From the NCBI GenBank assembly GCA_944376845.1, contig CALWDZ010000003.1:59758-123757 (forward strand): a DNA stretch of 64,000 nucleotides. The letters are read 5' to 3'. The translations under genes and the position numbers were made by a program. The notes under the pieces were generated by a model. It was not told where the DNA came from, ran no database searches, and was given only the letters and a program-made list of their open reading frames with translations. This document shows, in pieces, positions 992 to 52,971 of the stretch; positions within the stretch are counted from its first letter, which is position 1; every line of letters starts with the position of its first letter. The DNA is from an uncultured Clostridia bacterium. GTDB lineage: Bacteria > Bacillota > Clostridia > Christensenellales > UBA1242.

Positions 992-1734
992 GGTCACAAA
1001 TTCTCATAAATAAATATGTGATAGAATATAAAAATAGTTTAGTTAATTATTGTACAATAGGCGAAAGCGAACAAGTTATGCTCTATCTTCATGGCTGGAG
1101 CGGAAGTGTAGATAGTTTTAAACATTTAACGACATCATTAGATTATAAAAACATTCTTATAGACTTTCCGCCATTTGGGGAAAGCGAAGAGCCTAAAACA
1201 CCATACACACTTTTTGATTATGCGGAGATAGTTTATAAAATATTAAAAAAAGAAAATGCAAAAAAAATAAATATAATTTGTCATTCATTTGGTGCAAGAG
1301 TTGCAATACTTTTAATATCAATGTATAATGTGGATGTTGAAAAACTTATAATCACTGCAGGTGCAGGAATAAAACCAAAAAATAAAATAAAAAAAATATT
1401 TAGAAAAATAAAATATAAAATAATAAAAAAAATAAATAAAAAATATTTGGCAGGTTCAAGTGATTATAAAAAATTATCAAATGTTATGAAAAAAACATTT
1501 TCAAATATAATAAATCTCGATATTGCACCATATGCAAAAAAGGTAAATTCAAAAACACTTTTAATATATGGAAATCGTGACAAAGAAACACCAATTTATA
1601 TGGCAAAAAAATTAAATAAATATATTAAAAATTCAAAACTAATAATTTATAAAAATTGTGGGCATTTTGCTTATCTTGAAAATAATGTACAATTTTTAAT
1701 AGATATAAAAACATTTTTAAAAGGGGAAAATTAA
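982..1734 (+). CDS. alpha/beta hydrolase
   Basis: HGWSGS oxyanion region, nucleophile elbow CHSFGA, C-terminal CGHF histidine region and a Lys-rich lid insertion. Start codon uncertain (TTG at 982). Confidence 0.65.
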   Translation: MHLRSQILINKYVIEYKNSLVNYCTIGESEQVMLYLHGWSGSVDSFKHLTTSLDYKNILIDFPPFGESEEPKTPYTLFDYAEIVYKILKKENAKKINIICHSFGARVAILLISMYNVDVEKLIITAGAGIKPKNKIKKIFRKIKYKIIKKINKKYLAGSSDYKKLSNVMKKTFSNIINLDIAPYAKKVNSKTLLIYGNRDKETPIYMAKKLNKYIKNSKLIIYKNCGHFAYLENNVQFLIDIKTFLKGEN

Positions 1735-3353
1735 TGGACTTTTTCAGAGCCACAAATTTACATCTTTATATCGGAATAGTTTTATCATGTGTAAATGGTG
1801 TTTTGATGTGTCTTCTTGCCAGCAAATTTTTACATGTTATTCAACTCTCTGGTTACAAAATTGTGGGTTATAGGGCATATTTAAAAGAAACAAAATGGTC
1901 ATATGTAACAAGACTTGTTGTGCTTTGCTTTATGTCGGCACTTTGCGTACTTGTCACCAATTCGCTACTTGATGGCTATGGAGAATATTATTCATATCTT
2001 GGTCTTATATTCTACTTTTATTTTTGTACCGTGTTTATAATAAATGTCTATCGTGCACCACAAAAAACTCCACTAAAACAAACACACCGTATGCAACGTC
2101 TTACATTTGTGGTGTTCCTTTTAATGTCGGCACTTACTTTCGCTCTTATTATGCTATTTAGTGAATATGTTCCTTTTGTGCGTTTTGGAGTTGTCGCAAT
2201 AACACCAATATTTTTGCCAGTTATTGTTCCACTTGCTCACTTTATTTGCATACCAATGGAAAATACATTTCGTCAGGTTTATAAAAAACGTGCTAAGAAA
2301 AAACTCGCCTCTATGCCAAACCTTATAAAAATAGGCATTACAGGTAGTTATGGTAAAACTACAACAAAGCATATTTTAAATGTAATGCTCAGCACAAAAT
2401 ATAGTGTCTGTATGAGTCCACATAGTTTCAATACTCCAATGGGGCTTACAAAAGTTATAAATAATTATCTTGAAACAAACCATGAAATTCTTATTGCAGA
2501 AATGGGTGCAAGACAAGTGGGCGATATTGCATATTTATGTAATCTTATACATCCAAAACATGCCATAATCACTGGTGTTGGCAATCAACATCTTGCAACT
2601 TTTGGCACACTAGACAATATCTATAAAGCCAAAAAAGAACTGGTAGATGCAATAGAGGATGGTTATGTTTGTTTTAATGCGCAAAATGAAGGCTCTCTTG
2701 AAATGTACAATGAATGTACAAAAGACAAATACCTTTGTGGCATAGACGGTGATTATTTTGTATCTATTTCAAATATAAAAGCATCTTCTAAAGGCTCAAC
2801 TTTTGACCTTAAAATAGATGGAGAAAGCGTCAGTTGTACAACAAAACTGCTGGGCAAAAGTAATCTTGAAGATATTGCACTTGCAGCAGGGCTTGCATAT
2901 AAATTAGGTATTTCGCCACTTGGTATAAAAAATGCAATATCTACATTAAAACCAATACCACACCGCACTGAACTTATAGAAGAAAATGGGCTTACAATCA
3001 TTGATGACTCCTTCAATGCTTCGGTTGAAAGTAGTAAAAACGCACTTGAAACGCTGGCACTATTTGACGGAGAAAAAATTGTGGTTACTCCGGGACTAGT
3101 GGAACTTGGTGATAGTGAATATGCAGAAAATGTAGCATTTGGCGAAAACATAGCAAAGGTCGCCAATAAAGTGATAATAGTAAATAAAACAAATCAACAA
3201 GCACTAATGACGGGACTACTCAAAAGCGGTTTTGATGAAAATAATATACTAGAAGTTGAAACTCTCAATGATGCAAAGCAAAAACTAAAAGACATTCTAA
3301 GTGGCGGAGAAATTGTACTGTTTGAGAATGATTTGCCAGACAACTATATTTAA
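1734..3353 (+). CDS. MurF-like Mur ligase with N-terminal polytopic membrane domain
   Basis: P-loop GITGSYGKTTTKH, EMGARQVGDI, ITGVGNQHLATFG, IDDSFNAS and TPGLVELGD match MurF central and C-terminal domains. The first ~190 aa are hydrophobic helices instead of the MurF N-domain. Confidence 0.7.
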   Translation: MDFFRATNLHLYIGIVLSCVNGVLMCLLASKFLHVIQLSGYKIVGYRAYLKETKWSYVTRLVVLCFMSALCVLVTNSLLDGYGEYYSYLGLIFYFYFCTVFIINVYRAPQKTPLKQTHRMQRLTFVVFLLMSALTFALIMLFSEYVPFVRFGVVAITPIFLPVIVPLAHFICIPMENTFRQVYKKRAKKKLASMPNLIKIGITGSYGKTTTKHILNVMLSTKYSVCMSPHSFNTPMGLTKVINNYLETNHEILIAEMGARQVGDIAYLCNLIHPKHAIITGVGNQHLATFGTLDNIYKAKKELVDAIEDGYVCFNAQNEGSLEMYNECTKDKYLCGIDGDYFVSISNIKASSKGSTFDLKIDGESVSCTTKLLGKSNLEDIALAAGLAYKLGISPLGIKNAISTLKPIPHRTELIEENGLTIIDDSFNASVESSKNALETLALFDGEKIVVTPGLVELGDSEYAENVAFGENIAKVANKVIIVNKTNQQALMTGLLKSGFDENNILEVETLNDAKQKLKDILSGGEIVLFENDLPDNYI

Positions 3354-3399
3354 AATTGCCAAAATTATGGGCAAATACTTTGTTTCTGTGGTGTCAATC

Positions 3400-3434
3400 C
3401 ACACAGTCATTTAGGTAAACTAAACTCCTGCGTG
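3400..3434 (+). repeat. 35-nt conserved motif CACACAGTCATTTAGGTAAACTAAACTCCTGCGTG, second copy at 52500-52533
   Basis: Direct comparison gives about 31 of 35 positions identical to the insert of array unit Y1. Both copies are preceded by a short hairpin of different sequence. Confidence 0.7.
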
Positions 3435-3455
3435 CGGATATGTTAAAATAAAAAT

Positions 3456-4237: not shown

Positions 4238-4545
4238 TTCATTCTGAACCTTTTTTGTCTGAGCCTTATCTTCTGCTATTCTGACATTATCTTCCGTCAT
4301 TCTGAGCGTAAGCGAAGAATCTCAACTTTACGTCACCCTGACCACTGCTCGCTTTGACGGAGAGGAAGGGTCTCTAAGAGGATGAGACTCTTCGTCAGCC
4401 GTCAGGGAAGCCACACTCAGAGTGACTAGAAAAATGTCATTCTGAACCCTTATGTCATTCTAAACAATCTTTTGTCATTCTGAGCGAAGCGAAGAATCTC
4501 AAAGATGTCTTACTTCGCTCGACATGACAAGAGAGAGTGACATAA
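4238..4545 (+). repeat. cluster of GC-rich short repeats (S modules GTCATTCTGAG..GAAGAATCTC at 4296-4323 and 4474-4500, degenerate copies, and a 95-nt L module at 4332-4426)
   Basis: Repeated GTCATTCTGA[GA]C words. The L module GTCACCCTGACC...CAGAGTGAC recurs at 30.9 and 31.6 kb. GC content is clearly above the flanks. Confidence 0.85.
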
Positions 4546-4732: not shown

Positions 4733-6424
4733 ATGAATAGAAAGTCTAAGTTATTCTTAAGTTTAGTATCGTTATGTTTTAGTATAGCAGTACTATGTTT
4801 TGGAGTATATAGTGCACTAAGTGTAAGTTACTCCATAAGTGGTAGTGTAAGTTATGAAATAAACGATGTGTTTGTAGAGTTAAACTTAAGTGTGTATAGA
4901 GAATTATCTACAACACCAGTTAATAGTGCAACACATAATCAAAACATAAGCACAATAAAGGATGCAGGAGATACCATCTCCGAAACAGACTTTGGCAAAC
5001 TTTCATACACCGATCATGAATCCACATACGAGGATGGAGAAGTTAAACCGGGCAATGAAGATGGAATATTTGAAGCAGATTCACCAAATTTAGCCTTAAC
5101 ATACGGCTCACCAACAAACGACAATCAAGGTTATGCATTTTATATAGTAATAGATATACATAACCTAGGCAGTGAGATAATAAACGCACAAATAACAGCA
5201 CCAACATCACTAGAGAACACCATTTTACGTGACTCAGGCAATGTAGAAATAACAGCAGACGGCACAGAGAGAATAGTATTAGGTTTAGCCCTAGACGATG
5301 TAACAAAAGGTATAACAAGTGCTGACTTTACCTATACAATAACAATCACGCGTGGTGAATTGCCTATAGAACCGATAATAGATATGGATTTTGGTATTGA
5401 TGAAATTACAAAAACCGCTACGCTTGCATCTTACACCGGATCGGGTGGTGATGTAATTATACCTAATTCGATAGGCTATAATTCACTTTCTTCAAAGACT
5501 TTAATATTTAACTCAATGGAAGATATGCTATCAGGAGCGAGAGGGATATATTTTTTTCAAGATTTATATATAACACTTCCAAATCAGAAAGCACAACTTA
5601 TTGAAAATCCAGTATTATGGTATATTGATAATTTAGGAAATATCCAATCATCACCACAAAATTATTTTTCAATGACAATACAAACTGTAGAAAGTTATAC
5701 AATTGACCAAGTAGATTATGCTGAATTTAATCAAAAAATGGCACATATGGCCACGACGCTTGCTTTTGGACCTATCCAAATGATAATGCAGAACATGTCT
5801 TTAACTTCAGTAGATGTACAATATGGCACAGAAGACCAATCTTTTACTTTTAATATGGAAAACTATAATGCTTATATGGATGGTGATGATAGCCCAATAA
5901 GTACAGTAATAGATGATTTTATGTCAAAAATGGAATCTGATCCAGAATCGTTATTGCCAGTAACTTATAGTAATTTTGAATATATTGTAGTTGTTAAAGA
6001 TGGTGAATATTCTGTAACAAGTATAGGAGAGAGTGCTTTCTCTAGTTTTAGTTCACTCACTAGTATAGAGATACCAAGCAGTGTAACAAGTATAGGCTCT
6101 AGTGCCTTCAATAATTGCTCTGCTTTAGAAACAATAACCTTTGGAGCGAACTCGCAACTAGAGAGTATAGGAGGGTCTGCCTTCTCTGGTTGTTCCAACT
6201 TAACCAGCATCACAATCCCAAGCAATGTGACAAGTATAGGCGATGAGGCCTTCGAAAGTTGTTCACTAGAAACATTAACATTTGAAGATGCCGATAGTAT
6301 ATGGGTGCTTAATGATAATACCGAGATTATAATAAGTGACCATACTGCTCAAGAACTTGCAGATTTTATAACAGACAACTACACTTACATGTATTCTACC
6401 TGGACAAAAAAGCAATCAGCATAG
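4733..6424 (+). CDS. surface protein with N-terminal signal anchor, TasA-like N-domain and C-terminal BspA-type leucine-rich repeats
   Basis: RBS AAAGGAGAAAAAGT precedes the ATG at 4733. Hydrophobic N-terminus ends in FGVYSA. C-terminal repeats SIGESAFSSFSSLTSIEIPSSVTSIGSSAFNNCSALETITF are typical of the BspA/LRR_5 type. Confidence 0.75.
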   Translation: MNRKSKLFLSLVSLCFSIAVLCFGVYSALSVSYSISGSVSYEINDVFVELNLSVYRELSTTPVNSATHNQNISTIKDAGDTISETDFGKLSYTDHESTYEDGEVKPGNEDGIFEADSPNLALTYGSPTNDNQGYAFYIVIDIHNLGSEIINAQITAPTSLENTILRDSGNVEITADGTERIVLGLALDDVTKGITSADFTYTITITRGELPIEPIIDMDFGIDEITKTATLASYTGSGGDVIIPNSIGYNSLSSKTLIFNSMEDMLSGARGIYFFQDLYITLPNQKAQLIENPVLWYIDNLGNIQSSPQNYFSMTIQTVESYTIDQVDYAEFNQKMAHMATTLAFGPIQMIMQNMSLTSVDVQYGTEDQSFTFNMENYNAYMDGDDSPISTVIDDFMSKMESDPESLLPVTYSNFEYIVVVKDGEYSVTSIGESAFSSFSSLTSIEIPSSVTSIGSSAFNNCSALETITFGANSQLESIGGSAFSGCSNLTSITIPSNVTSIGDEAFESCSLETLTFEDADSIWVLNDNTEIIISDHTAQELADFITDNYTYMYSTWTKKQSA

Positions 6425-11120: not shown

Positions 11121-11215
11121 AATTTATTGACAATTTATATTAGATATGATACTATATTCTCCGTGAGTTTTTATAAGAAATGTTTAAAATGCTCACAGTG
11201 CCAATCAAGCAATAT

Positions 11216-11257
11216 GCGCCCATAGCTCAATTGGATAGAGCGTTGGTCTACGGAACC
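11216..11257 (+). pseudogene. orphan 5' half of tRNA-Arg(ACG) (acceptor 5' strand through anticodon loop)
   Basis: 42 nt identical to 11422-11463 of the intact gene, plus 5 identical upstream nt. No matching 3' half follows. Confidence 0.85.
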
Positions 11258-11421
11258 TGCTTGGCTTATGTACCTATATGCTCACTTTGCTGGTGGCAAA
11301 GTATCGCTCTAAGGCACAAAGCCTGCGCTTCCCCAAAAAGTTTACAAGTAATACTTTTTGGGGGCCCCGAACAGAAACCTTTGGTTCCTAATTTGGTTAA
11401 CAAAGGCACACAATTTAATAT

Positions 11422-11498
11422 GCGCCCATAGCTCAATTGGATAGAGCGTTGGTCTACGGAACCAAAGGTTGGGGATTCGAGCTCCTCTGGGCGCACCA
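11422..11498 (+). tRNA. tRNA-Arg (anticodon ACG), CCA encoded
   Basis: Manual cloverleaf: acceptor GCGCCCA/TGGGCGC, D arm GCTC..GAGC, anticodon stem TTGGT/ACCAA with loop CTACGGA, T arm GGGGA-TTCGAGC-TCCTC. Confidence 0.9.
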
Positions 11499-23737: not shown

Positions 23738-26700
23738 ATGAAATCTTTAAAAACTAAGATAGCCACCGTATTTAGTTTTATATGCCTAGCACTGTCAATG
23801 GCAGTGTTTGGCGTTTTTTCTGCAATCAATATACAAAATAATACCAATGGTCAACTTGGCTACATAGATAAAACTTGCTACATACAAAATTCGTCTGGAA
23901 GTAAAACATTTTACTCCACAATAGAAAAGGCTTATGCTAGTGCCACCGATGGTGACGCTATTTGTGTTTTTGAGGATATATCACTTTCAGCGGACTTTTC
24001 GGTTGAAAAAAACATATCACTTATGGCGGTTTCTTCAGATGTTACACTAAATCTTTCAGGATACAACATTGTTATTGGTAGTGGCAACACACTCACTTTG
24101 GGTGGTGGCTTAAATACATTAACACTTTCTTCAAGTTCAAATAGTACAATACAAAATGAAGGCACATTAAATGTCTATGGTGGAATTATTTCAAGTGCGG
24201 AAATTACCAATATGGGCGAATTGACATTTTTTGGCGGACAAGTAGATACCATAGCAAATACAGGACTTGTCACACTTTCGCAGTCTGCACAAATCAATAC
24301 AATACAAACAACACAACAAACCGCAGGAGAAACCGATGCGGGAATTTTTGTTTCTTCAAACTTTGTAGCAACTTCACCAATACAACTTATTATAAGTGGC
24401 GGAACACCTACACCGGGTCAACAAGTTGCATATTTTCAAGAGTTGGCAGATGCACAAAATTTTGCGGACTATTTCACCTTGACGAACTCTGGATATTTCT
24501 TGCACACTTCGGGCAATTCACTTTTAATAGGTCAATACATCACACCACCAACAGTAAGTGGACAATCTACTTTCATGTATGATGGTACTTTAAAGACATT
24601 GCGATTTAGTGGTTTAACATCATTAATGAGTGTTTCGGGCGACACACAGACTAATGCTGGAGATTACACCGCAACGGTATCACTTACCGATAAAACTAAT
24701 TATCGTTGGTCAGATACAAGAGATAGTGTTGATAAAGAATTCCGTTGGAGCATTGACCCTGCACAACTTGAATATCCAACAGTTGAACAAGATGAATTTA
24801 CATATAACACTCAATCACATTCACTTGTATTTAGTGGATTAAATAAGGATTTAATGGAGGTTAGTGGAACAACATCTGCAACAAATGTTGGAACATATGC
24901 AGCACGTGTAAGTCTTAAAGATAAGGTAAATTACACATGGGTAGATGGTGAAACTGGTGATGTAACATATCCATGGACAATAAACAAACGTCAATTAACT
25001 ATTCCAACCGCTAATCCAGCAAGTTATACATACACAGGGTCTGTTATAACTGCAACTTATACAAACCCAGATTCCGAGAATATAACACTTGGCGGGGATT
25101 TGACTGCGACAGTGGTTGGCAGTTACACCGCAACGGCGACAATAAAAGACACTGCAAACAATGAATGGACAGATGGAACAACATTAGTTAAAAATATTGA
25201 ATGGTCAATCACAAAAGCCGATCTTTTGGCACCAGATGGGCTCATATGGATACCATCTGAAGATAAATCGTCAGCAACGGCAAGATGGAATGCTGTGTCA
25301 GGTGGACAGTCATACACAGTTACAGTACTTGTCAATGGTTTACCAAGCGATCTTACAAAGACTATAAATTCAACAGAAGTTAACTTCACATCAACTGAAC
25401 TTAATGCGCTAGACAACGGCACATATACCTTCCGCGTTCAAGCAATTGGCAATTCTAACTACAACGATAGTCCTACAGCAACCTCGGGCAACTTGTATAG
25501 ACTTGTCTACATGACAAACGATGGTACAAGTACAGTCCATGCAAGACAGTACTATACACAAGGACAAAGCATATCAGCACCTAGTAAACCATCACGCACA
25601 GGCTACAACTTTATCGGTTGGGCAACTACAAACACGGCAACATCAGATAACTTGCCATCAACCGCCACAGAATCAGATACATACTATGCAGTATGGAGAG
25701 CAATTTCATATAATATATCCATTAACAACGCAAGTGGCACTGGTGGTTCTGTAGCACCTTCAACCTATACTACATCTGCAAAAGATCAGAGAATAACAAT
25801 AACAGAGCCAACACGTGTGGGCTACACATTTAACGGTTGGGCAATTAAAGTTGACGGTTCATATAGTGGAAAAGAACCAACAGTAAGCGGAACAACACTC
25901 ACAATACCAGCAAATTGCTATGGTAACATTACTCTTACTGCAACTTGGACAGCAAGACAATATAATATTACTTTAAATCAAAACAGTGGCACTGGTGGTA
26001 CTATCAATACAGCAACATATAATACCTCAACCTCAAGTCAGACAAGAACATTAACAAACCCAACAAGAGCAGGTTATGAATTTGCTGGTTGGGCAATTAA
26101 AGTTGACGGTTCATATAGTGGAAAAGAACCAACAGTAAGCGGAACAACACTCACAATACCAGCAAATTGCTATGGTAACATTACTCTTACTGCAACTTGG
26201 ACAGCAAGACAATATAATATTACTTTAAATCAAAACAGTGGTACTGGTGGTTCTATCAACACAGCAACATATAATACCTCAACCTCAAGTCAGACAAGAA
26301 CATTAACAAACCCAACAAGAGCAGGTTATAGATTTGCTGGTTGGGCAATTAAAGTTGACGGTTCATATAGTGGAGAAGCACCAACAGTAAGCGGAACAAC
26401 ACTTACAATACCAGCAAATTGCTATGGTAATATTACCCTTACTGCAAATTGGACATTGGCTATTTACACCATTACATTTGAAAGAAATAGTGGTACATGG
26501 GCAAGTGGTTACCCTGTACCAAAATCCTACAATATAAATTCAGGTGAAATCACATTACCAACAGCAGACAATATCTATCGTACAAACGATATCTTCTCAG
26601 GTTGGTATACTTCATCCACCTTCTCAGGAGATCCTGTAACAAGCATTCCAGCAGGTTCAACCGGTAACAAAACCTATTATGCACAATGGACAGAGGCTGC

Positions 26701-29222: not shown

Positions 29223-30434
29223 ATGAATTTAAATTTCATAAATCAAATTGCTTTTTTTAAGAGAAAAACTGGCAACAAAGTGCGTAAACTAACCAGATTT
29301 AAAAACAAATCAAGTGTTGAGTATAATGCATCACTTAGTATTAAAGATATTTTGGAACCGCTTATTGAAAAAGATATGCGAGACATCAATAAGATGATTG
29401 AAACCCTTTTTCGTAAACTTATGGCAAATAGAATGGGGCTTTTTACCATTGTCAAATTTGATATGAAAAATTATTTTCCATCCATATCACTTCGCTATGC
29501 TTATGATTTTTTCATCAAAGATAAAATTAGCGAAAAATATCATCCACTTTTTGAAAATTATTGTGATAATGTTAAATACAATCTTCAAGGGCTTCCACCG
29601 TCAAGCAACTTTGCGGCAGTTATGTCAAAGGCACTAAAAGACGAACTATTTGCATTTTTTAAAGTTGATGGACTAACCGATTGCTTTTATTATGTAGATG
29701 ATTTTGTGCTATTATTCAAAAAGCGTGTAAATGAAATTTACATCAAATTTGGTATTTTGGAATGTATTAAAAATGTATTTTTTAAACGCAACAAATTACA
29801 ATATCAAAACAAAGTTAAGGCACATATTGATGACTCAAAATATACTTTTTTGGATGATACAAAACTTCCTGGCAGTTTTACATGGCTAGGTTATAAAATC
29901 GGCATTTCATATGGTTGGCAGGGCATTGGCATAACGCTAGATATGGCAGATTACAAGATGGAAATATATAGAAAAGCATTTTTTGACGCCGTTAAACAAA
30001 ATTATGCTGATGAGGAAAAGATGCGTTTGATGCTATATTCTAGCACTCGCAGTGTAGTTACAAAAATACACAAGCAGGGGAAACCAGATAAAAATGTCAG
30101 CATTTCACCATTTAAATTTTACAAAAACTTCAAAAAGTACCCAGAACTGGTAGGTGAAAACACTCGACGTTTTATGCAAGGAGTGATTGTAGATGCTTTT
30201 AGACAACAAACTATTGCCATGCCATTTTATTTAAAAGATAAAGATCCAAACAGCGGTTACAATCTATGGCATAACTTTTTTAACAGCAAAGCCATTGTAT
30301 TAAATAAAACATTTGGATGGTCTTATGAAAAACTTTATAACACCATGAAAAAATATTCCAAACTTGACATTCACTCAAAGTCATATGAACAACTTGCAAA
30401 AATGTATATAGATAATTTTGTGATAAAACTTTAA
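29223..30434 (+). CDS. stand-alone reverse transcriptase, class unassigned (retron/UG-Abi-like architecture)
   Basis: RBS AAAGGAGAA precedes the ATG at 29223. Motifs occur in order: FDMKNYFPSI, LQGLPPSSNFAAVMSKAL, CFYYVDDFVLLF (YVDD at 29691-29702), FTWLGYKI. A ~150-aa C-terminal extension has no endonuclease or maturase signature. Confidence 0.8.
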   Translation: MNLNFINQIAFFKRKTGNKVRKLTRFKNKSSVEYNASLSIKDILEPLIEKDMRDINKMIETLFRKLMANRMGLFTIVKFDMKNYFPSISLRYAYDFFIKDKISEKYHPLFENYCDNVKYNLQGLPPSSNFAAVMSKALKDELFAFFKVDGLTDCFYYVDDFVLLFKKRVNEIYIKFGILECIKNVFFKRNKLQYQNKVKAHIDDSKYTFLDDTKLPGSFTWLGYKIGISYGWQGIGITLDMADYKMEIYRKAFFDAVKQNYADEEKMRLMLYSSTRSVVTKIHKQGKPDKNVSISPFKFYKNFKKYPELVGENTRRFMQGVIVDAFRQQTIAMPFYLKDKDPNSGYNLWHNFFNSKAIVLNKTFGWSYEKLYNTMKKYSKLDIHSKSYEQLAKMYIDNFVIKL

Positions 30435-30441
30435 TATTTAT

Positions 30442-30470
30442 TTGTAAATTTTTTTAATTTGTGTTATATT
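30442..30470 (+). promoter_or_regulatory. sigma-70-type promoter TTGTAA-17 nt-TGtTATATT
   Basis: -35 at 30442-30447, extended -10 at 30462-30470, 8 nt after the RT stop codon. Confidence 0.5.
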
Positions 30471-30476
30471 ATGTTT

Positions 30477-30570
30477 AAGGTTGCGAGAGCGACTGAATTA
30501 CCCGAATTCGAAACAAGATCTCAGATGTTGTTTCATGCGGGTGGGGCTGCGGCGCCACCCCTTTTTTTTT
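30477..30570 (+). ncRNA. candidate ~95-nt small RNA (or structured RT 3' UTR) ending in a strong intrinsic terminator
   Basis: Bounded by the promoter above and by a GC-rich hairpin at 30538-30561 plus T9. Internal hairpins GAATT-ACCCG-AATTC and GAAACA..TGTTTC. No RBS for the 33-codon ORF it contains. Confidence 0.4.
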
Positions 30571-30696
30571 AAAACTAAAAAATAACTCTTGATAGTTTCG
30601 TTTACTGCCAAGCGTGTCCGCACAGTTACGTACGTTTGTACGCGCCTGCGCGGACACACTTGTCGAGCCTTACTCTCAAGGTTATTTTTTAGTTTT
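30571..30696 (+). repeat. 126-nt multi-helix element A1 (family with 52329-52454)
   Basis: 16-bp terminal stem AAAACTAAAAAATAAC/GTTATTTTTTAGTTTT, junction motif CGTTTACTG, inner stem GTGTCCGC/GCGGACAC, core hairpin CGTAC-GTTT-GTACG, junction motif GTCGAGCCT. Confidence 0.8.
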
Positions 30697-30735: not shown

Positions 30736-30781
30736 TGCGCGGACTTGTCGAGCCTTACTCTCAAGGTTATTTTTTAGTTTT
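30736..30781 (+). repeat. partial second copy (3' half) of element A1
   Basis: TGCGCGGAC-TTGTCGAGCCTTACTCTCAAGGTTATTTTTTAGTTTT duplicates 30647-30696 with a 4-nt deletion. Confidence 0.8.
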
Positions 30782-30795
30782 AAATATACTATTTA

Positions 30796-31066
30796 GTCAC
30801 CCTGACCGCTCTCAGACCACTTGTCATTCTGAGGAGCGAAGCGACGTGAGAATCTCATCATCTTGTCATTCTGAGCCCAACTTCAACGCGTCGACCTGCG
30901 AAGAATCTCTATCATATGTCACCCTGACCACTGGCCCGCTTTGATGGAGAGGAAGGGTCTCAACTATAAGAGATCCTTCGTCAGCCGTCAAGGAAGCCAC
31001 ACTCAGAGTGACTAAAAAAATTGTCATTCTGAGCCTCGACCCGCAGAGACGGAGACGAAGAATCTC
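30796..31066 (+). repeat. repeat block left of GIY-YIG (S and L modules; contains the left ~177-bp direct repeat at 30821-30997)
   Basis: Near-identical to 31491-31666. Confidence 0.9.
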
Positions 31067-31086
31067 TTTAAGCATTTGCCAAATAT

Positions 31087-31401
31087 ATGAATTTGTGTAA
31101 TAATCTTACTATGTATTATGTTTACATTTTATCCAATAAAAACAATACGGTTTTATACATTGGAGTTACAAATAATTTGGTAAGAAGAGTTTATGAACAT
31201 AAACAAAAATTTGTTCAAGGTTTTACAAAAACTTATAATGTAGACAAACTTGTTTATTATGAAATTTTGTATGATCCATATAATGCAATTACAAGAGAAA
31301 AACAATTGAAAGGATTGAAAAGAAAGAAAAAAGATATGCTAATAAATAATTTTAATCCGGATTGGCACGATTTATATCAAGATATTTGTAATAGCGTATG
31401 A
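31087..31401 (+). CDS. GIY-YIG nuclease family protein (small UPF0213/COG2827-type)
   Basis: YYVYILSNKNNTVLYIGVTNNLVRRVYEH...AITREKQLKGLKRKKK is the GIY-YIG core. The start may be the ATG at 31111. Confidence 0.85.
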   Translation: MNLCNNLTMYYVYILSNKNNTVLYIGVTNNLVRRVYEHKQKFVQGFTKTYNVDKLVYYEILYDPYNAITREKQLKGLKRKKKDMLINNFNPDWHDLYQDICNSV

Positions 31402-31700
31402 GATCCTTCGTCAGCCGTCAAGGAAGCAGTTCTCAGGATGACACACACAGTCTTCTGAGCATATTTTTCTGTCATTCTGAGCGTACTTTTTTGTCATTCT
31501 GAGGAGCGAAGCGACGTGAGAATCTCATCATCTAGTCATTCTGAGCCACACTCCAACGCGTCGACCTACGAAGAATCTCTATCATATGTCACCCTGACCG
31601 CTCCCCGCTTTGACGGAGAGGAAGGGTCTCAACTATAAGAGATCCTTCGTCAGCCGTCAAGGAAGCAGTTCTCAGGATGACACACACAGTCATTCTGAGT
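31399..31700 (+). repeat. repeat block right of GIY-YIG (contains the right ~177-bp direct repeat at 31491-31666 and a 60-nt segment duplicated at 31401 and 31640)
   Basis: Direct sequence comparison. The GIY-YIG stop codon is the first triplet of the block. Confidence 0.9.
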
Positions 31701-31704
31701 CAAG

Positions 31705-32166
31705 TCACACGGCATCGTCAGAAATGTGATGAGTTTTATTCTTTAAACAAAATAGAGCGTATAAAGGTACTGATTTTATGTTGTTTTCAAAACCAAAATT
31801 TTTAGATGAAACTCTAATAGAGTAGATAGGATTATATTTTTTTACAAACACACCAAGACTTTTTGCTTGGACATTGTCTACATATTTGCATTCAATTGGG
31901 ACTATACCATTCTCTAACTGAATAACAAAGTCAAGTTCAGCCTTTCCATTGGACTCCCAATAATATGGTTCAAGCCCAATTGAAATAAGTTGTTGCATAA
32001 CATAGTTTTCAGATATTGCACCTTTGGCATCGCTTGACAACATATCCATTAAAATATTTTGATAGTTTAAATTTAAACTATTTGATAGCAAGCCTACATC
32101 ACTCATATATATTTTATAACTTAATAAATCTTCATAAATTTTTAAAGGCATCAATTTAAGAAGCAT
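31705..32166 (-). pseudogene. C-terminal remnant of a DUF4143-type AAA ATPase
   Basis: Only the ~150-aa C-terminal region is present (…AELDFVIQLENGIVPIECKY…). The ~250-aa ATPase part has no room before gltX. Confidence 0.6.
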
Positions 32167-45949: not shown

Positions 45950-46049
45950 AGAAGAAATAATATCACAAAACTGCAAAATAACAAATCATTTAACAATATT
46001 TATTTTATCGTCATACAATGAAATGAATACACTTAAAAGGAGAAGGACA

Positions 46050-46916
46050 ATGCCATGTAATTGTAATAATACGCCACCACCATGTTGTGAAAATATTTTC
46101 GCAACAAACACGGTGACGAGAAGTCAACGCGGTCCACAAGGTCCTACAGGTCCAACCGGACCAACAGGCCCTTCTACTGGAGCGACTGGTCCAACCGGTG
46201 CAACAGGTCCAACCGGTGCCACAGGTCCTACTGGAGCAACTGGTCCAACAGGTGCACAAGGCCCACAAGGAATACAAGGTATTCAAGGATTTGCTGGTAT
46301 ACAAGGTCCTACAGGAACAACGGGTGCCACGGGACCAACAGGAGCCACAGGAGCGACTGGTCCAGCCGGAGCGACTGGTCCAACTGGACCTGCCGGAGCA
46401 ACAGGCGCGACAGGTGCAACCGGACCAACAGGTGCAACAGGTCCTACTGGTGCCACTGGAGTTACGCCAACATTTACTATTGGTACCGTAACCACTGGAG
46501 CACCTGGAACCACTGCAACGGCTAATATAACTGGAACTGCACCAAACTTTTTCTTGAATTTGATAATACCTCAAGGTGCCACAGGTCCAACTGGGGCAAC
46601 GGGACCAGCAGGTACGACAGGTGCAACCGGCCCAACTGGACCTATAGGAACATTAGGTGCAACAGGTCCAACAGGAGCAACTGGGGCGACAGGTGCTACA
46701 GGCCCAACGGGACCTGCCGGAGCAACGGGTACCACTGGAGCAACTGGACCAACCGGCCCAGCGGGAGCAACGGGAGCAACAGGCCCTACAGGACCAGCAG
46801 GTGCAACTGGTGCAACGGGTCCAACTGGACCTGCCGGGGCAACAGGTGCTACAGGTCCAACCGGACCAACTGGAGCGACGGGACCAACCGGACCAACTGG
46901 CCCAACTGGACCATAA
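46050..46916 (+). CDS. collagen-like triple-helix repeat protein (BclA-like surface protein)
   Basis: RBS AAAGGAGAAGG. Cys-rich N-terminus [13 protein letters not shown]. Two G-x-T blocks are separated by [39 protein letters not shown]. The protein ends inside the repeat. Confidence 0.85.
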
Positions 46917-46926
46917 TGACAAAAAA

Positions 46927-50545: not shown

Positions 50546-52330
50546 ATGAAACATTTAACAAGTGAACAATTGAGGTCGATGTATATAAAGTTTTTTGTCG
50601 ACCACGGACATGTACAAATTCCTTCTGCATCAGTAATTCCAGAAAATGACCCAACGGTGCTTTTCACCACTGCAGGTATGCATCCACTAGTCCCATACCT
50701 TCTTGGAGAAAAACATCCAGCAGGCAAAAGACTTACTGATTATCAAAAATGCATAAGAACAGGTGATATTGATGATGTAGGTGATTCTTCACACTGCACA
50801 TTTTTTGAGATGCTAGGTAACTGGAGCCTTGGAGATTATTTTAAGGAACAAATGATTGCATGGAGTTATGAGTTTTTAACAAGTCCAAAATATCTTGGAA
50901 TTGACAAAAATAAAGTTGCCGTTTCAGTTTTTGCTGGCGATAATGAAATGCCTCGTGATGAAGAAAGTGCAATGCTTTGGGAAAAAGCAGGAATAAACAA
51001 GGAAGACATTTACTACCTTTCAAGAGAGCATAACTTTTGGGGACCGGCAGGTACAACAGGCCCTTGCGGTACAGATACAGAGATGTTTATAAAAGTCAAA
51101 GAAAAATGTTCAAAAGATTGCTCACCGGCATGTTCTTGTGGTGCATTTTTGGAAATTTGGAATGATGTCTTTATGGCGTATAACAAAAACGCTGATGGCA
51201 CTTATTCGCCATTAAAGCAAAGAAATGTCGACACCGGAATGGGCTTGGAGCGAACATTATGTGTTTTGAATAATGAACAATCAGTTTATGATACCGACCT
51301 TTTTGAAAATGCCAGGAAAAAATTAGAAGAACTTACAGGACTTAAATATGGTGAGAATGGAAAAATAACGAAGGCATTTCGTGTTATTTTAGACCATATC
51401 CGTACTGCTGTTTTTATGCTTGGTGACCAAAATGGAATTGTTCCAAGCAATGTTGACCAAGGTTATATCTTGCGTAGAATACTTCGTGGTGCAATTCGTC
51501 ATGCACGCACCGTCGGACTTAAAGAAGGTGAGCTGAATGAAATTGCAAAACAATATATTGAAAAATATAAAGATGTCTATCCAGAACTTTTACAAAATAA
51601 AGATAAAATTAATGAAGAAATAACAAAAGAATACAAAAAGTTTATGAGAACACTTGAAGGTGGACTAAAAGAATTTGAACGCACTGTAAAAAAATTAAGT
51701 GGTGATACAATTGATGGTGTTACAGCATTCCATCTTTTTGATACCTTTGGTTTTCCACTTGAGATGACTATTGAACTTGCAAAAGAACAAAATCTTAAAG
51801 TAGATGTGGATGGCTATAAAGAAGCATTTAAAAAACATCAAGAGATTTCACGCGCGGGAAGTGAACAAAAATTTGCATGTGGTCTTGCAGATAACCAAGA
51901 GGCAACTACTCATCTTCACACAGCAACACATCTTTTGCATGCAGCACTTAAAAAAGTAATTTCACCTGATGTAAATCAAAAAGGTAGCAATATAACAGCG
52001 GAAAGGCTGCGCTTTGATTTTAATCTTGATAGACCTTGCACAAAAGAAGAATTGCAAAAAATTGAAGATATGGTCAATGATGTCATAAAGCAAAATATTC
52101 CAGTCGTTATGGAAGAAATGACTGTTGAAGAAGCAAAAAATCGTGGTTTTATAGGACTATTTACAAATAAATACGGTGACAAAGTCAAAACTTATAGAAT
52201 AGGTGATTTTTCAAAAGAAATTTGCGGTGGGCCTCATGCAAATTTTACTGGAGAACTCGGACATTTCAAAATTGTAAAAGAGCAGTCTTGCAGTGCGGGG
52301 GTACGCAGGATTAAAGCCATCCTCGAATAA
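50546..52330 (+). CDS. alaS: alanine--tRNA ligase, short form (594 aa, no C-Ala domain)
   Basis: N-terminal FTTAGMHPLVPYLLG, WNDVFM, editing-domain HTATHLLHAAL and CGGPH. Ends at GVRRIKAILE. Confidence 0.85.
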   Translation: MKHLTSEQLRSMYIKFFVDHGHVQIPSASVIPENDPTVLFTTAGMHPLVPYLLGEKHPAGKRLTDYQKCIRTGDIDDVGDSSHCTFFEMLGNWSLGDYFKEQMIAWSYEFLTSPKYLGIDKNKVAVSVFAGDNEMPRDEESAMLWEKAGINKEDIYYLSREHNFWGPAGTTGPCGTDTEMFIKVKEKCSKDCSPACSCGAFLEIWNDVFMAYNKNADGTYSPLKQRNVDTGMGLERTLCVLNNEQSVYDTDLFENARKKLEELTGLKYGENGKITKAFRVILDHIRTAVFMLGDQNGIVPSNVDQGYILRRILRGAIRHARTVGLKEGELNEIAKQYIEKYKDVYPELLQNKDKINEEITKEYKKFMRTLEGGLKEFERTVKKLSGDTIDGVTAFHLFDTFGFPLEMTIELAKEQNLKVDVDGYKEAFKKHQEISRAGSEQKFACGLADNQEATTHLHTATHLLHAALKKVISPDVNQKGSNITAERLRFDFNLDRPCTKEELQKIEDMVNDVIKQNIPVVMEEMTVEEAKNRGFIGLFTNKYGDKVKTYRIGDFSKEICGGPHANFTGELGHFKIVKEQSCSAGVRRIKAILE

Positions 52331-52905
52331 AACGCAAAATTGTGGGTGTCTGCGTCGTTTACTGTCGGGCAACCCTCACACAATCACGTACAAAGTACGC
52401 TCGTGCGTGAGGGCACCCGCCGAGCCTAGCATCCACCGCACAATTTTGCGTTTTAATTTATTTTAATTGTCATTTCATCGTTTACCGTTAAAGTGAGTTC
52501 ACATAGTCATTTAGGGAACTAAACTTCTGCGTGACACAACAAGTCGAGCCTCGTCTTTGCCGCACAATTTTGCGTTTTTTATATTATATTAGTGTGTCTG
52601 CGTCGTTTACTGTCGGGCAACCCTCACACAATCACGTACAAAGTACGCTCGTGCGTGAGGGCACCCGCCGAGCCTAGCATCCACCGCACAATTTTGCGTT
52701 TTTATTTATTTTAATTGTCATCGCATCGTTTACTGTCAAGTGAGTTTACATAGACTATTTTAAGCCCAAAAGCGAGAGTTTTGACGATGTCGAGCCTCGT
52801 CTTTGCCGCACAATTTTGCGTTTTTTATATTATATTAGGGTGTCTGCGTCGTTTACTGTCGGGCAACCCTCACACAGTCACGTACAAAGTACGCTCGTGC
52901 GTGAG
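52329..52905 (+). repeat. tandem array (~247-bp period, 2.4 copies) of alternating 126/123-nt X and Y units of the CGTTTACYG...GYCGAGCC element family
   Basis: X1 52329-52454, Y1 52455-52580, X2 52581-52703, Y2 52704-52826, X3 (partial) 52827-52905. The X units are nearly identical. The Y units share their flanks but differ in a ~55-nt insert. Confidence 0.9.
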
Positions 52906-52926
52906 CGTGTGGTAATCTCTACTTGT

Positions 52927-52960
52927 GTCGTTCTGAGGAGCGAAGCGACGTGAGAATCTC
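52927..52960 (+). repeat. S-module repeat GTCGTTCTGAGGAGCGAAGCGACGTGAGAATCTC
   Basis: Matches the copies at 30823 and 31493. Confidence 0.8.
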
Positions 52961-52971
52961 ATCATTTAAAA

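Follow-up and report, generated by a model that had tools for sequence, protein, structure and literature searches.

A gene-following, covarying hairpin-repeat family in Christensenellales-like Clostridia

Two 126-nt elements, A1 and X1, in a 64,000-nt stretch of DNA from an uncultured Clostridia bacterium (hereafter the window) are members of a large family of hairpin repeats in Christensenellales-like Clostridia, apparently one that has not been described before. Its members share one architecture with covarying helices, take the polarity of the gene upstream, often hold the stop codon of that gene inside their outer stem, are gained and lost between relatives, are duplicated in tandem, and occur independently of the reverse transcriptase (RT) that neighbors A1. 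We favor, with a probability of roughly 0.5, the view that the family is a non-autonomous repeat of the REP/BIME, ERIC, or attC kind, which would spread by duplication and insertion and be recognized as a folded single strand.

The geometry of the two copies given in the initial annotation is reproduced base for base, including their lengths (Table 1). Within each copy, the two 16-nt terminal arms are perfectly complementary; from one copy to the other they change at 6 positions. The inner stems pair as GTGTCCGC/GCGGACAC in one copy and CCCTCAC/GTGAGGG in the other. The core hairpins read CGTAC-GTTT-GTACG and CGTAC-AAA-GTACG, and the junction motifs lie at offsets 29 and 28 (CGTTTACTG) and 92 and 91 (G(T/C)CGAGCC). 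Each junction motif occurs 6 times in the window, always on the + strand, compared with 0.3–0.4 occurrences expected from shuffles, and 6 occurrences were reached in 0 of 100 shuffles. Here, the + polarity of an element is the direction running from CGTTTACTG to GYCGAGCC, in which A1 is co-directional with its upstream genes. On the + strand, the two 126-nt copies fold with z-scores of −9.6 and −6.5, and on the − strand with −11.6 and −8.5; A1 itself folds better on the − strand (−65.7 kcal/mol) than on the + strand (−55.4 kcal/mol).

Table 1. Repeat units and adjoining features in the window, with scores from covariance model R1.
Feature	Coordinates	Strand	Remarks
A1, complete type-I element	30571..30696	+	R1 111 bits
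A1 junction 1, 5' strand (TCGTTTACTGC)	30598..30608	+	seen in every family member collected, partly by ascertainment because the search pattern demanded the motif
A1 junction 1, 3' strand (GTCGAGCCT)	30662..30670	+	motif match
A1 apical hairpin P3 (ACGTAC-GTTT-GTACGC)	30628..30643	+	
A1', 5'-truncated unit	30743..30787	+	exact 45-nt duplicate of A1 3' part, 100% identity
Terminator hairpin and T-run of RT-linked small RNA	30529..30570	+	context of A1
X1, complete type-I element, first array unit	52329..52454	+	R1 110.5 bits
alaS stop codon TAA, within base of X1 terminal helix	52328..52330	+	X1 5' arm begins inside the stop
Y1, both junction motifs, 3' arm same as X1	52457..52577	+	R1 41.9 bits
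X2, X core and 3' arm	52578..52704	+	R1 88.3 bits; 97% identity duplicate
Y2, second Y unit, same 3' arm	52705..52823	+	R1 21.2 bits
X3, truncated X unit	52838..52906	+	R1 partial match 52869–52905, 27.7 bits
Decayed relic behind Mur-ligase gene (gene by Pfam)	3354..3445	+	R1 match 3400–3434, 30.4 bits

In total, about 9 units at 3 loci are found in the window: A1 is accompanied by a partial copy, alaS is followed by an array of five units, and a Mur ligase gene by a decayed relic. All copies listed in the initial annotation stand, but its list was incomplete, as the relic was added by our covariance model (R1, see below). A1 does abut the RT-linked small RNA, as had been noted, starting immediately after the T-run of the terminator, and its partial copy A1' contains junction motif 2 and the 3' arm. 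In the array, Y1 differs from X1 in its interior and has a degenerate 5' arm, the 5' arm of X2 is replaced by an AT-rich spacer, and X3 is cut off past the 3' strand of its apical hairpin by a unit of another repeat family (GTCGTTCTGAGG...GAGAATCTC). The relic begins directly after the TAA stop (3351–3353) of ORF 1734–3353. Its 5' arm is X-like, its junction motif 1 degenerate, and its apical module intact, while the 3' part is missing.

A unit of about 125 nt comprises an outer stem (P1, about 25 bp in two parts), an asymmetric conserved loop (TCGTTTACTG / GYCGAGCCT), an inner stem (P2), a second conserved loop, and an apical hairpin (P3, 5–6 bp with a variable loop); both P2 and P3 covary. 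The consensus of junction 1 is TCGTTTACTGY opposite GYCGAGCCT, and on the − strand GGCU(C)G(R)C is paired with G(R)CAGU while AAACGA is unpaired. Junction 2, between P2 and P3, was missed in the initial annotation; it sets GGAG opposite UGAC on the − strand (i.e. tandem G.A), and flanks the A1 apical hairpin as TTA / CGC compared with AGTCA / CTCCTG in the family consensus. When the junction was inspected, by eye only, neither a K-turn nor a sarcin-ricin motif was supported. The junction is common to two subtypes. Type I, to which A1, X, and Y belong, has the interior AGTCA-hairpin-CTCCTG, while type II, the Christensenellaceae form, has the interior GATGACC-loop-GGTC and arms TTATAAAC...GTTTCTAA, its copies ending in A-runs rather than T-runs.

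A scan of one genome per species with the pattern TCGTTTACYG-N50-58-GYCGAGCCT returned at least 117 stretches. Among the matches listed, about 50 are single chance matches in high-GC genomes, and at least 68 copies form the long hairpin; at least about 65 true loci emerge from this species-representative scan, all of them in Clostridia, Christensenellaceae, or Christensenella MAGs. Copies can be dense, i.e. 3 loci in the 64-kb window and elsewhere as many as 4 within 5.6 kb, every one following a gene of its own. The covariance model R1, built from 24 type-I copies, recovers at least 105 copies in at least 69 loci.

Covariation, which the initial annotation had seen between the two window copies and proposed to pursue with a covariance model and a wider scan, persists across the family. 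In the R1 alignment, whose fitting to the model flatters these numbers, standard pairs occupy 86.9% of cells, compared with 56.8% in shuffles and 31–41% with slid partners, 35 of 37 pairs are altered on both sides, and the covariation score is 0.592 vs 0.148. An unfitted RNAalifold analysis agrees, giving 37 pairs of which 30 have compensatory changes. From a MAFFT alignment of the + strand of all 65 copies, RNAalifold gave only 11 pairs because the variable stems are misaligned there, and it yields the full structure when the type-I subset is aligned on the − strand. The pairing excess over shuffles and the two-sided changes thus uphold the earlier view that structure constrains the element, in which helices covary around conserved junctions.

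The motif had also not been recognized as a known RNA family, and our searches agree. Against Rfam 15, the whole window returned 3 tRNAs only at the gathering threshold, both copy regions gave nothing at the element at E ≤ 10 except a 14-bit T-box match (E = 2.2), and twelve other loci had no match on their elements. No family match was found in plasmids and phages, nor by blastn against 5,426 E. coli genomes (28 Gb). Literature searches by sequence string and keyword led only to primers and to papers on MITEs or REPs in general, with no description of the family. Two further sets of candidates were rejected: 104 matches of the two-motif pattern in viral contigs, all single chance cases in high-GC phage without a hairpin, and 4 matches from a metagenome scan with an X-specific 19-mer, which are chance occurrences in coding sequence that R1 does not match.

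One piece of the earlier argument does not carry the weight given to it. The compensated 16-bp terminal stem was offered as evidence of constraint, which it supports only weakly: the outer stem is locus- or lineage-specific, with the termini being the least conserved part of the element, its wobble pairs lack a strand preference (59 G.U on one strand vs 49 on the other), and it can consist of the last host codons and an inverted copy of them. As such, compensation in this stem is not ordinary covariation. At a queA locus (L114), for example, the native terminal codons of queA make up the 5' arm; the protein ends FGDACLIL* at the same position as solved QueA proteins, and the 3' arm holds the exact reverse complement of the last queA codons. 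Synonymous codon differences at orthologous queA loci (L213 and L211) are matched by differences in the 3' arm, and the same matching is found at an acs-like gene and others. In arrays, an identical 3' arm is found on every unit and the 5' partner on the first unit only. X-type arms, for their part, move with the element: the ACGCAAAATTGTG arms in the window and in L149, L152, and L189 differ in the outermost 4–5 bp only, and complementarity is kept in each copy. We infer that long hairpins lengthen or mend their outer stem with the upstream flank as template (quasi-palindrome template switching), with the coding arm presumably protected by selection.

Elements follow genes and take their orientation from them. 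Among the listed loci, the upstream ORF and the element point the same way in 51 of 61 cases, and in 46 of the 103 full-length copies listed the stop of a long co-oriented ORF falls within the arm on the motif-1 side, while only 2 have the stop of an opposite-strand ORF within the other arm. Stops no more than 60 nt from motif 1 lie inside the predicted terminal helix in 30 of 34 cases and are TAA equally often (30 of 34); the distance from stop to motif 1 has three preferred values (about 14, 23–25, and 28–33 nt). The start of X1 on the alaS stop is therefore correctly described in the initial annotation, but it is a habit of the whole family rather than a peculiarity of one copy. At this locus, the sequence is consistent with the element having supplied the alaS stop codon. 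Because elements occur on both strands of single contigs (L107, L160, L204, and L212), every one downstream of its respective gene, polarity is set by the gene, and an orientation set by replication was rejected; in the window, the + strand is the leading strand.

The upstream genes include alaS, queA, pfkA, and rpsI, i.e. housekeeping genes in conserved synteny, and Christensenellaceae copies are often at orthologous sites across species (queA, rpsI, a purF-like gene, and an acs-like gene). Elements are also found behind an RNase P RNA gene (L151) and behind terminators, namely those of rpsI and, for A1, of the RT-linked small RNA. Terminator-like signals come after the element at 19 loci and before it at 11, which places the element inside the transcript; lying in the 3' UTR, it probably affects the mRNA. 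A function as terminator or with an antisense promoter of its own was rejected, as no promoter box at a fixed distance was found on the antisense strand, where consensus scans did not exceed shuffles, and type-II copies end in A-runs.

Given this placement, the family may instead be a cis-acting module of the sense strand in mRNA 3' UTRs, a reading that we consider unlikely. In this case, the outer stem, in which the 3' arm pairs with the stop and the codons before it, would have to be opened by the terminating ribosome, the loops would bind a protein, the module would set 3'-end stability, processing, or termination efficiency of the mRNA, and mobility would be secondary. The polarity that tracks the upstream gene (46 vs 2) on both strands of a contig, the stops inside the helix, and the terminator-like signals that more often follow the element all speak for it, and strict polarity with stop embedding suggests a link to transcription or translation that a DNA-level parasite would not obviously need. 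The sense apical loops, of GNRA or G...A type, are also in its favor, as are the copies that occupy orthologous sites in different species and match codon changes by changes in the 3' arm; the latter fit a conserved function as well as they fit a selfish element. Against such a module, elements also lie behind non-coding genes and terminators (RNase P RNA, the RT small RNA, and rpsI), and close relatives lack an element behind alaS.

The strand signals within the hairpin also bear on this module, and they conflict. In the core helices P2b and P3, the model-fitted alignment has 138 G.U pairs on the − strand and 6 on the + strand, and minimum-free-energy folds, which are not model-fitted, have 107 antisense vs 16 sense. 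The sense strand, which is the one expected in the transcript of the upstream gene, thus shows A.C mismatches in its core helices where the antisense strand has G.U, the opposite of what is expected for a functional sense RNA helix, and the internal loops give tandem G.A pairs on the antisense strand only. In 47 of 64 copies, folding of the − strand yields the more stable structure, and conserved G.U pairs, like the tandem G.A motifs, are confined to that strand. Among distinct apical tetraloops, however, 8 of 14 are GNRA on the sense strand and 0 of 14 on the antisense strand, and most pentaloops are G...A on the sense strand. Selection signatures therefore point to opposite strands in different parts of one hairpin, the core to the antisense and the apical loops to the sense strand. 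A mutational cause of the asymmetry is unlikely because + is the leading strand and polarity follows genes anyway. The signals may reflect an attC-like bottom-strand DNA fold, a cDNA, an antisense RNA, or an mRNA hairpin that has been weakened while the DNA hairpin is kept.

A function of the antisense strand is improbable in our view, though several of these signals argue for it. It could take the form of an antisense RNA ending over the upstream stop, as a regulator or as an insulator or terminator for antisense transcription, or of an attC-like recombination site in bottom-strand ssDNA. The core G.U excess, the more stable − strand fold, the tandem G.A motifs and conserved G.U pairs, and the full 37-pair architecture, which RNAalifold returned from the − strand alignment only, would all be explained, while selection on the apical loops seems to act on the sense strand and an antisense promoter at a fixed distance is absent.

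The parallels with attC sites concern size, structure, stop-codon position, and the bottom-strand fold. Like attC, the element is an imperfect palindrome in the 57–141 nt range whose structure is kept while its sequence varies, lies immediately after and often overlapping the stop of a co-oriented ORF, shows a bottom-strand wobble asymmetry, and forms arrays. The interior of attC is variable, however, whereas the element has two strongly conserved internal loops, and the genes upstream of the element are core housekeeping genes in conserved synteny rather than cassettes, with no ORFs between the units of arrays. Neither an integrase nor an attI was found among the 21 window ORFs scanned, and no association with cassettes was seen. 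The R''/R' boxes of attC (RYYYAAC ... GTTRRRY) are absent from the window arms AAAACTAAAAAATAAC and AAAACGCAAAATTGTG, and AAC/GTT boxes (GCCTAAC and GTTATGC) are found in the Christensenellaceae subtype (type II) only, with spacers of 3 and 2 nt. The attC spacer is about 5 nt. A related and more speculative idea, to which we give slightly less credence than to antisense function, is that these elements form a class of polar hairpins at gene 3' ends in which the antisense fold is selected and the outer stem is rebuilt from host codons, being either a family of attC-like single-strand recombination sites outside integrons or a SINE-like repeat spread through cDNA.

Comparison of relatives reveals how the elements come and go. 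Behind alaS, two relatives whose AlaRS is 94% identical (L222 and L223) have no element; their homology to the window stops 10 nt before the alaS stop and resumes at a patatin gene. Insertion boundaries are not definable from these genomes because the sequence downstream of alaS is wholly different between them. The MAG that provides L223 also carries an X copy at another locus (L149) that is 91% identical to X1, while its flanking genes are about 77% identical. A1, too, is missing from three loci with RT homologues (L227–L229), which likewise speaks for recent gain. Copies are also mosaic, as A1 and the copy in L108 have P2 in common and differ in P3. The arrays are tandem duplications: the alaS array has the order X1-Y1-X2-Y2-X3 at a period of about 124 nt and was duplicated with a 248-nt period at 97–98% identity, and units of L147 repeat every 97 nt with identical cores. 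In the copies inspected, we found no consistent target-site duplication and no flanking direct repeat. Behind queA in L128 (− strand view, 5520–5700) and behind the acs-like gene in L122, a decayed duplicate of the last ~9 codons of the gene lies downstream of the newer unit, as the 5' arm of the older unit, an arrangement that indicates that new units are added at the end of the gene and displace older units outward together with a copy of the gene tail.

These features agree best with the repeat reading preferred here. REP, BIME, and REPIN repeats of Proteobacteria, which are linked to RAYT transposases, are likewise abundant extragenic hairpins found mostly at gene 3' ends within transcripts and in clustered arrays; compensatory changes keep their hairpins, some copies persist at orthologous sites, and they are thought to be recognized as folded single strands, as we propose here. 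The present family has the high copy number, extragenic position, and clustering of REP-type repeats. It differs in that a REP is 20–40 nt long with a GTAG or CGTC tag, while the element is about 125 nt without a conserved tag, and in that a REPIN is two inverted copies of one REP, while the element is a single hairpin with two non-complementary loops (TCGTTTACTG and GYCGAGCCT). Its strict gene polarity, the stop codon inside the stem, and the Clostridia host also set it apart from REP.

ERIC/IRU repeats of Enterobacteria provide a second likeness, being imperfect palindromes of about 126 nt that occur in many copies in transcribed intergenic regions with no known transposase. The element family has no sequence similarity to ERIC (i.e. 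no match in the 5,426 E. coli genomes). In ERIC both orientations occur and the sequence is kept, whereas in the element family structure and loops are kept, the stems vary, and copies are polar relative to the gene.

Under the preferred reading, a putative trans-acting factor would recognize and propagate the folded single strand through the two conserved loops. The element would settle at the 3' ends of transcription units with the polarity of the upstream gene, usually with the stop in the outer stem, and hairpin-promoted tandem duplication would then amplify it locally into arrays such as the one at alaS. Recognition in trans of a folded single strand is something we infer; none of the 21 window ORFs scanned belongs to a transposase-like family, RAYT included, and no transposase, integrase, or other partner gene was seen in these ORFs and in the stretches of up to 8 kb around matches.

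An ordinary MITE, i.e. a deletion derivative of an insertion sequence whose terminal inverted repeats are recognized as double-stranded DNA, is very improbable. The size, inverted termini, intergenic location, multiple copies, and recent gain and loss do recall one, and Correia, RUP, and other MITEs are similarly small, have inverted ends, lie near gene ends, and may affect mRNAs. These, however, have conserved terminal repeats and target-site duplications, while the termini of the present element are its least conserved part, variable by locus or derived from it, and no duplication was seen, which bears out the earlier argument against a classical MITE, whose terminal inverted repeats would be conserved. 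Conservation is instead centered on two internal loops that are not complementary to each other, covariation in the internal stems is extensive, and orientation relative to genes is strict. No insertion sequence with ends matching the junction motifs was seen in the loci examined.

The least probable reading, and one already largely refuted for this RT, makes the element part of the neighboring RT system, as a retron-like template or an RT-mobilized SINE-like element: A1 directly follows the small RNA behind a retron-like RT, 5'-truncated units that keep their 3' end exist, and an antisense-strand fold would suit cDNA, but the truncated units that are clearest arose by simple tandem duplication, a search of 5.8 billion proteins turns up just 9 clusters of the RT family against a widespread element, and the surroundings (about 4 kb) of the other ~120 listed loci are free of RT homologues. 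Three loci with RT homologues (L227–L229) keep the downstream small RNA and terminator without the element, so it is not conserved with the RT as a retron ncRNA would be, and the co-occurrence with the RT that the initial annotation proposed to test does not hold. A1 has landed after the small-RNA terminator, and its link to the RT is incidental. No homologue of the nearby GIY-YIG nuclease was found at other element loci either.

The neighborhood of A1 has features of its own. The RT (ORF 29223–30434) has a YVDD motif and weak retron-type matches, without a Pfam match, and its annotated start overlaps the end of a gene for a 1771-aa protein with Listeria-Bacteroides repeat domains, in which three 252-nt tandem repeats (25590–26455) are 78–80% identical. 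The conserved small RNA (AAGGTTGCGAGAGCGACTGA ... GAAACA-hairpin-GTTTCAT ... terminator) lies about 100 nt downstream of this rare, divergent RT, and a downstream position is unusual for retrons; the RT and small RNA together span 29223–30570 in the window, 2501–3900 in L227, 2501–3860 in L228, and 2501–3900 in L229. A second, unrelated family of small hairpin repeats (GTCATTCTGAG ... GA(A/G)AATCTC, plus GTCACCCTGACC units) occurs at 4313–4426, 30800–31080, 31400–31700, and 52920–52965. It clusters around the GIY-YIG nuclease ORF (31087–31401), one of its units truncates X3, and similar units come after the RT small RNA in the relative L228. At 31705–32166 (−), a 153-aa DUF4143 fragment matches only the C-terminal third of PDC-S01, a candidate defense protein of PADLOC (E = 1.4e-45), and is probably a truncated gene in a repeat-rich spot.

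Elsewhere in the window, the 5' part of a tRNA gene is present a second time as an exact 47-nt copy (11211–11257 and 11417–11463), 206 nt ahead of the intact tRNA (11422–11495). A long run of 9-nt repeats (Gly-X-Y, collagen-like) occupies 46100–46920 (ORF 46023–46916), and a collagen-like repeat region also adjoins alaS in the relative L224. The AlaRS ORF (50546–52330) and its relatives (L222–L226) are only about 595 aa long, and the window AlaRS ends AILE*, one residue earlier than the AILEK* of its closest relatives. A typical bacterial AlaRS has ~870 aa, so that ~595 aa would mean that the usual C-terminal domain is missing.

Hairpin repeats such as REP, ERIC, and attC are known mainly from Proteobacteria, and a structurally elaborate counterpart from gut Clostridia, the health-associated Christensenellaceae among them, is apparently new. 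Copies are numerous, and in some stretches almost every gene is followed by one. Given this abundance, the overlap with stop codons, and the placement of the last codons of essential genes in a long helix, the family is likely to influence the 3' ends of mRNAs, the annotation of genes, assembly, and the stability of the genome nearby. Its unusual features are the strict polarity with the stop inside the stem and the selection signatures on opposite strands of one hairpin, and model R1 allows the family to be annotated by others. If the attC-like version of the polar hairpin class were true, a core gene with its hairpin would resemble a proto-cassette, and this would bear directly on the unsolved question of how integron cassettes and attC sites arose.
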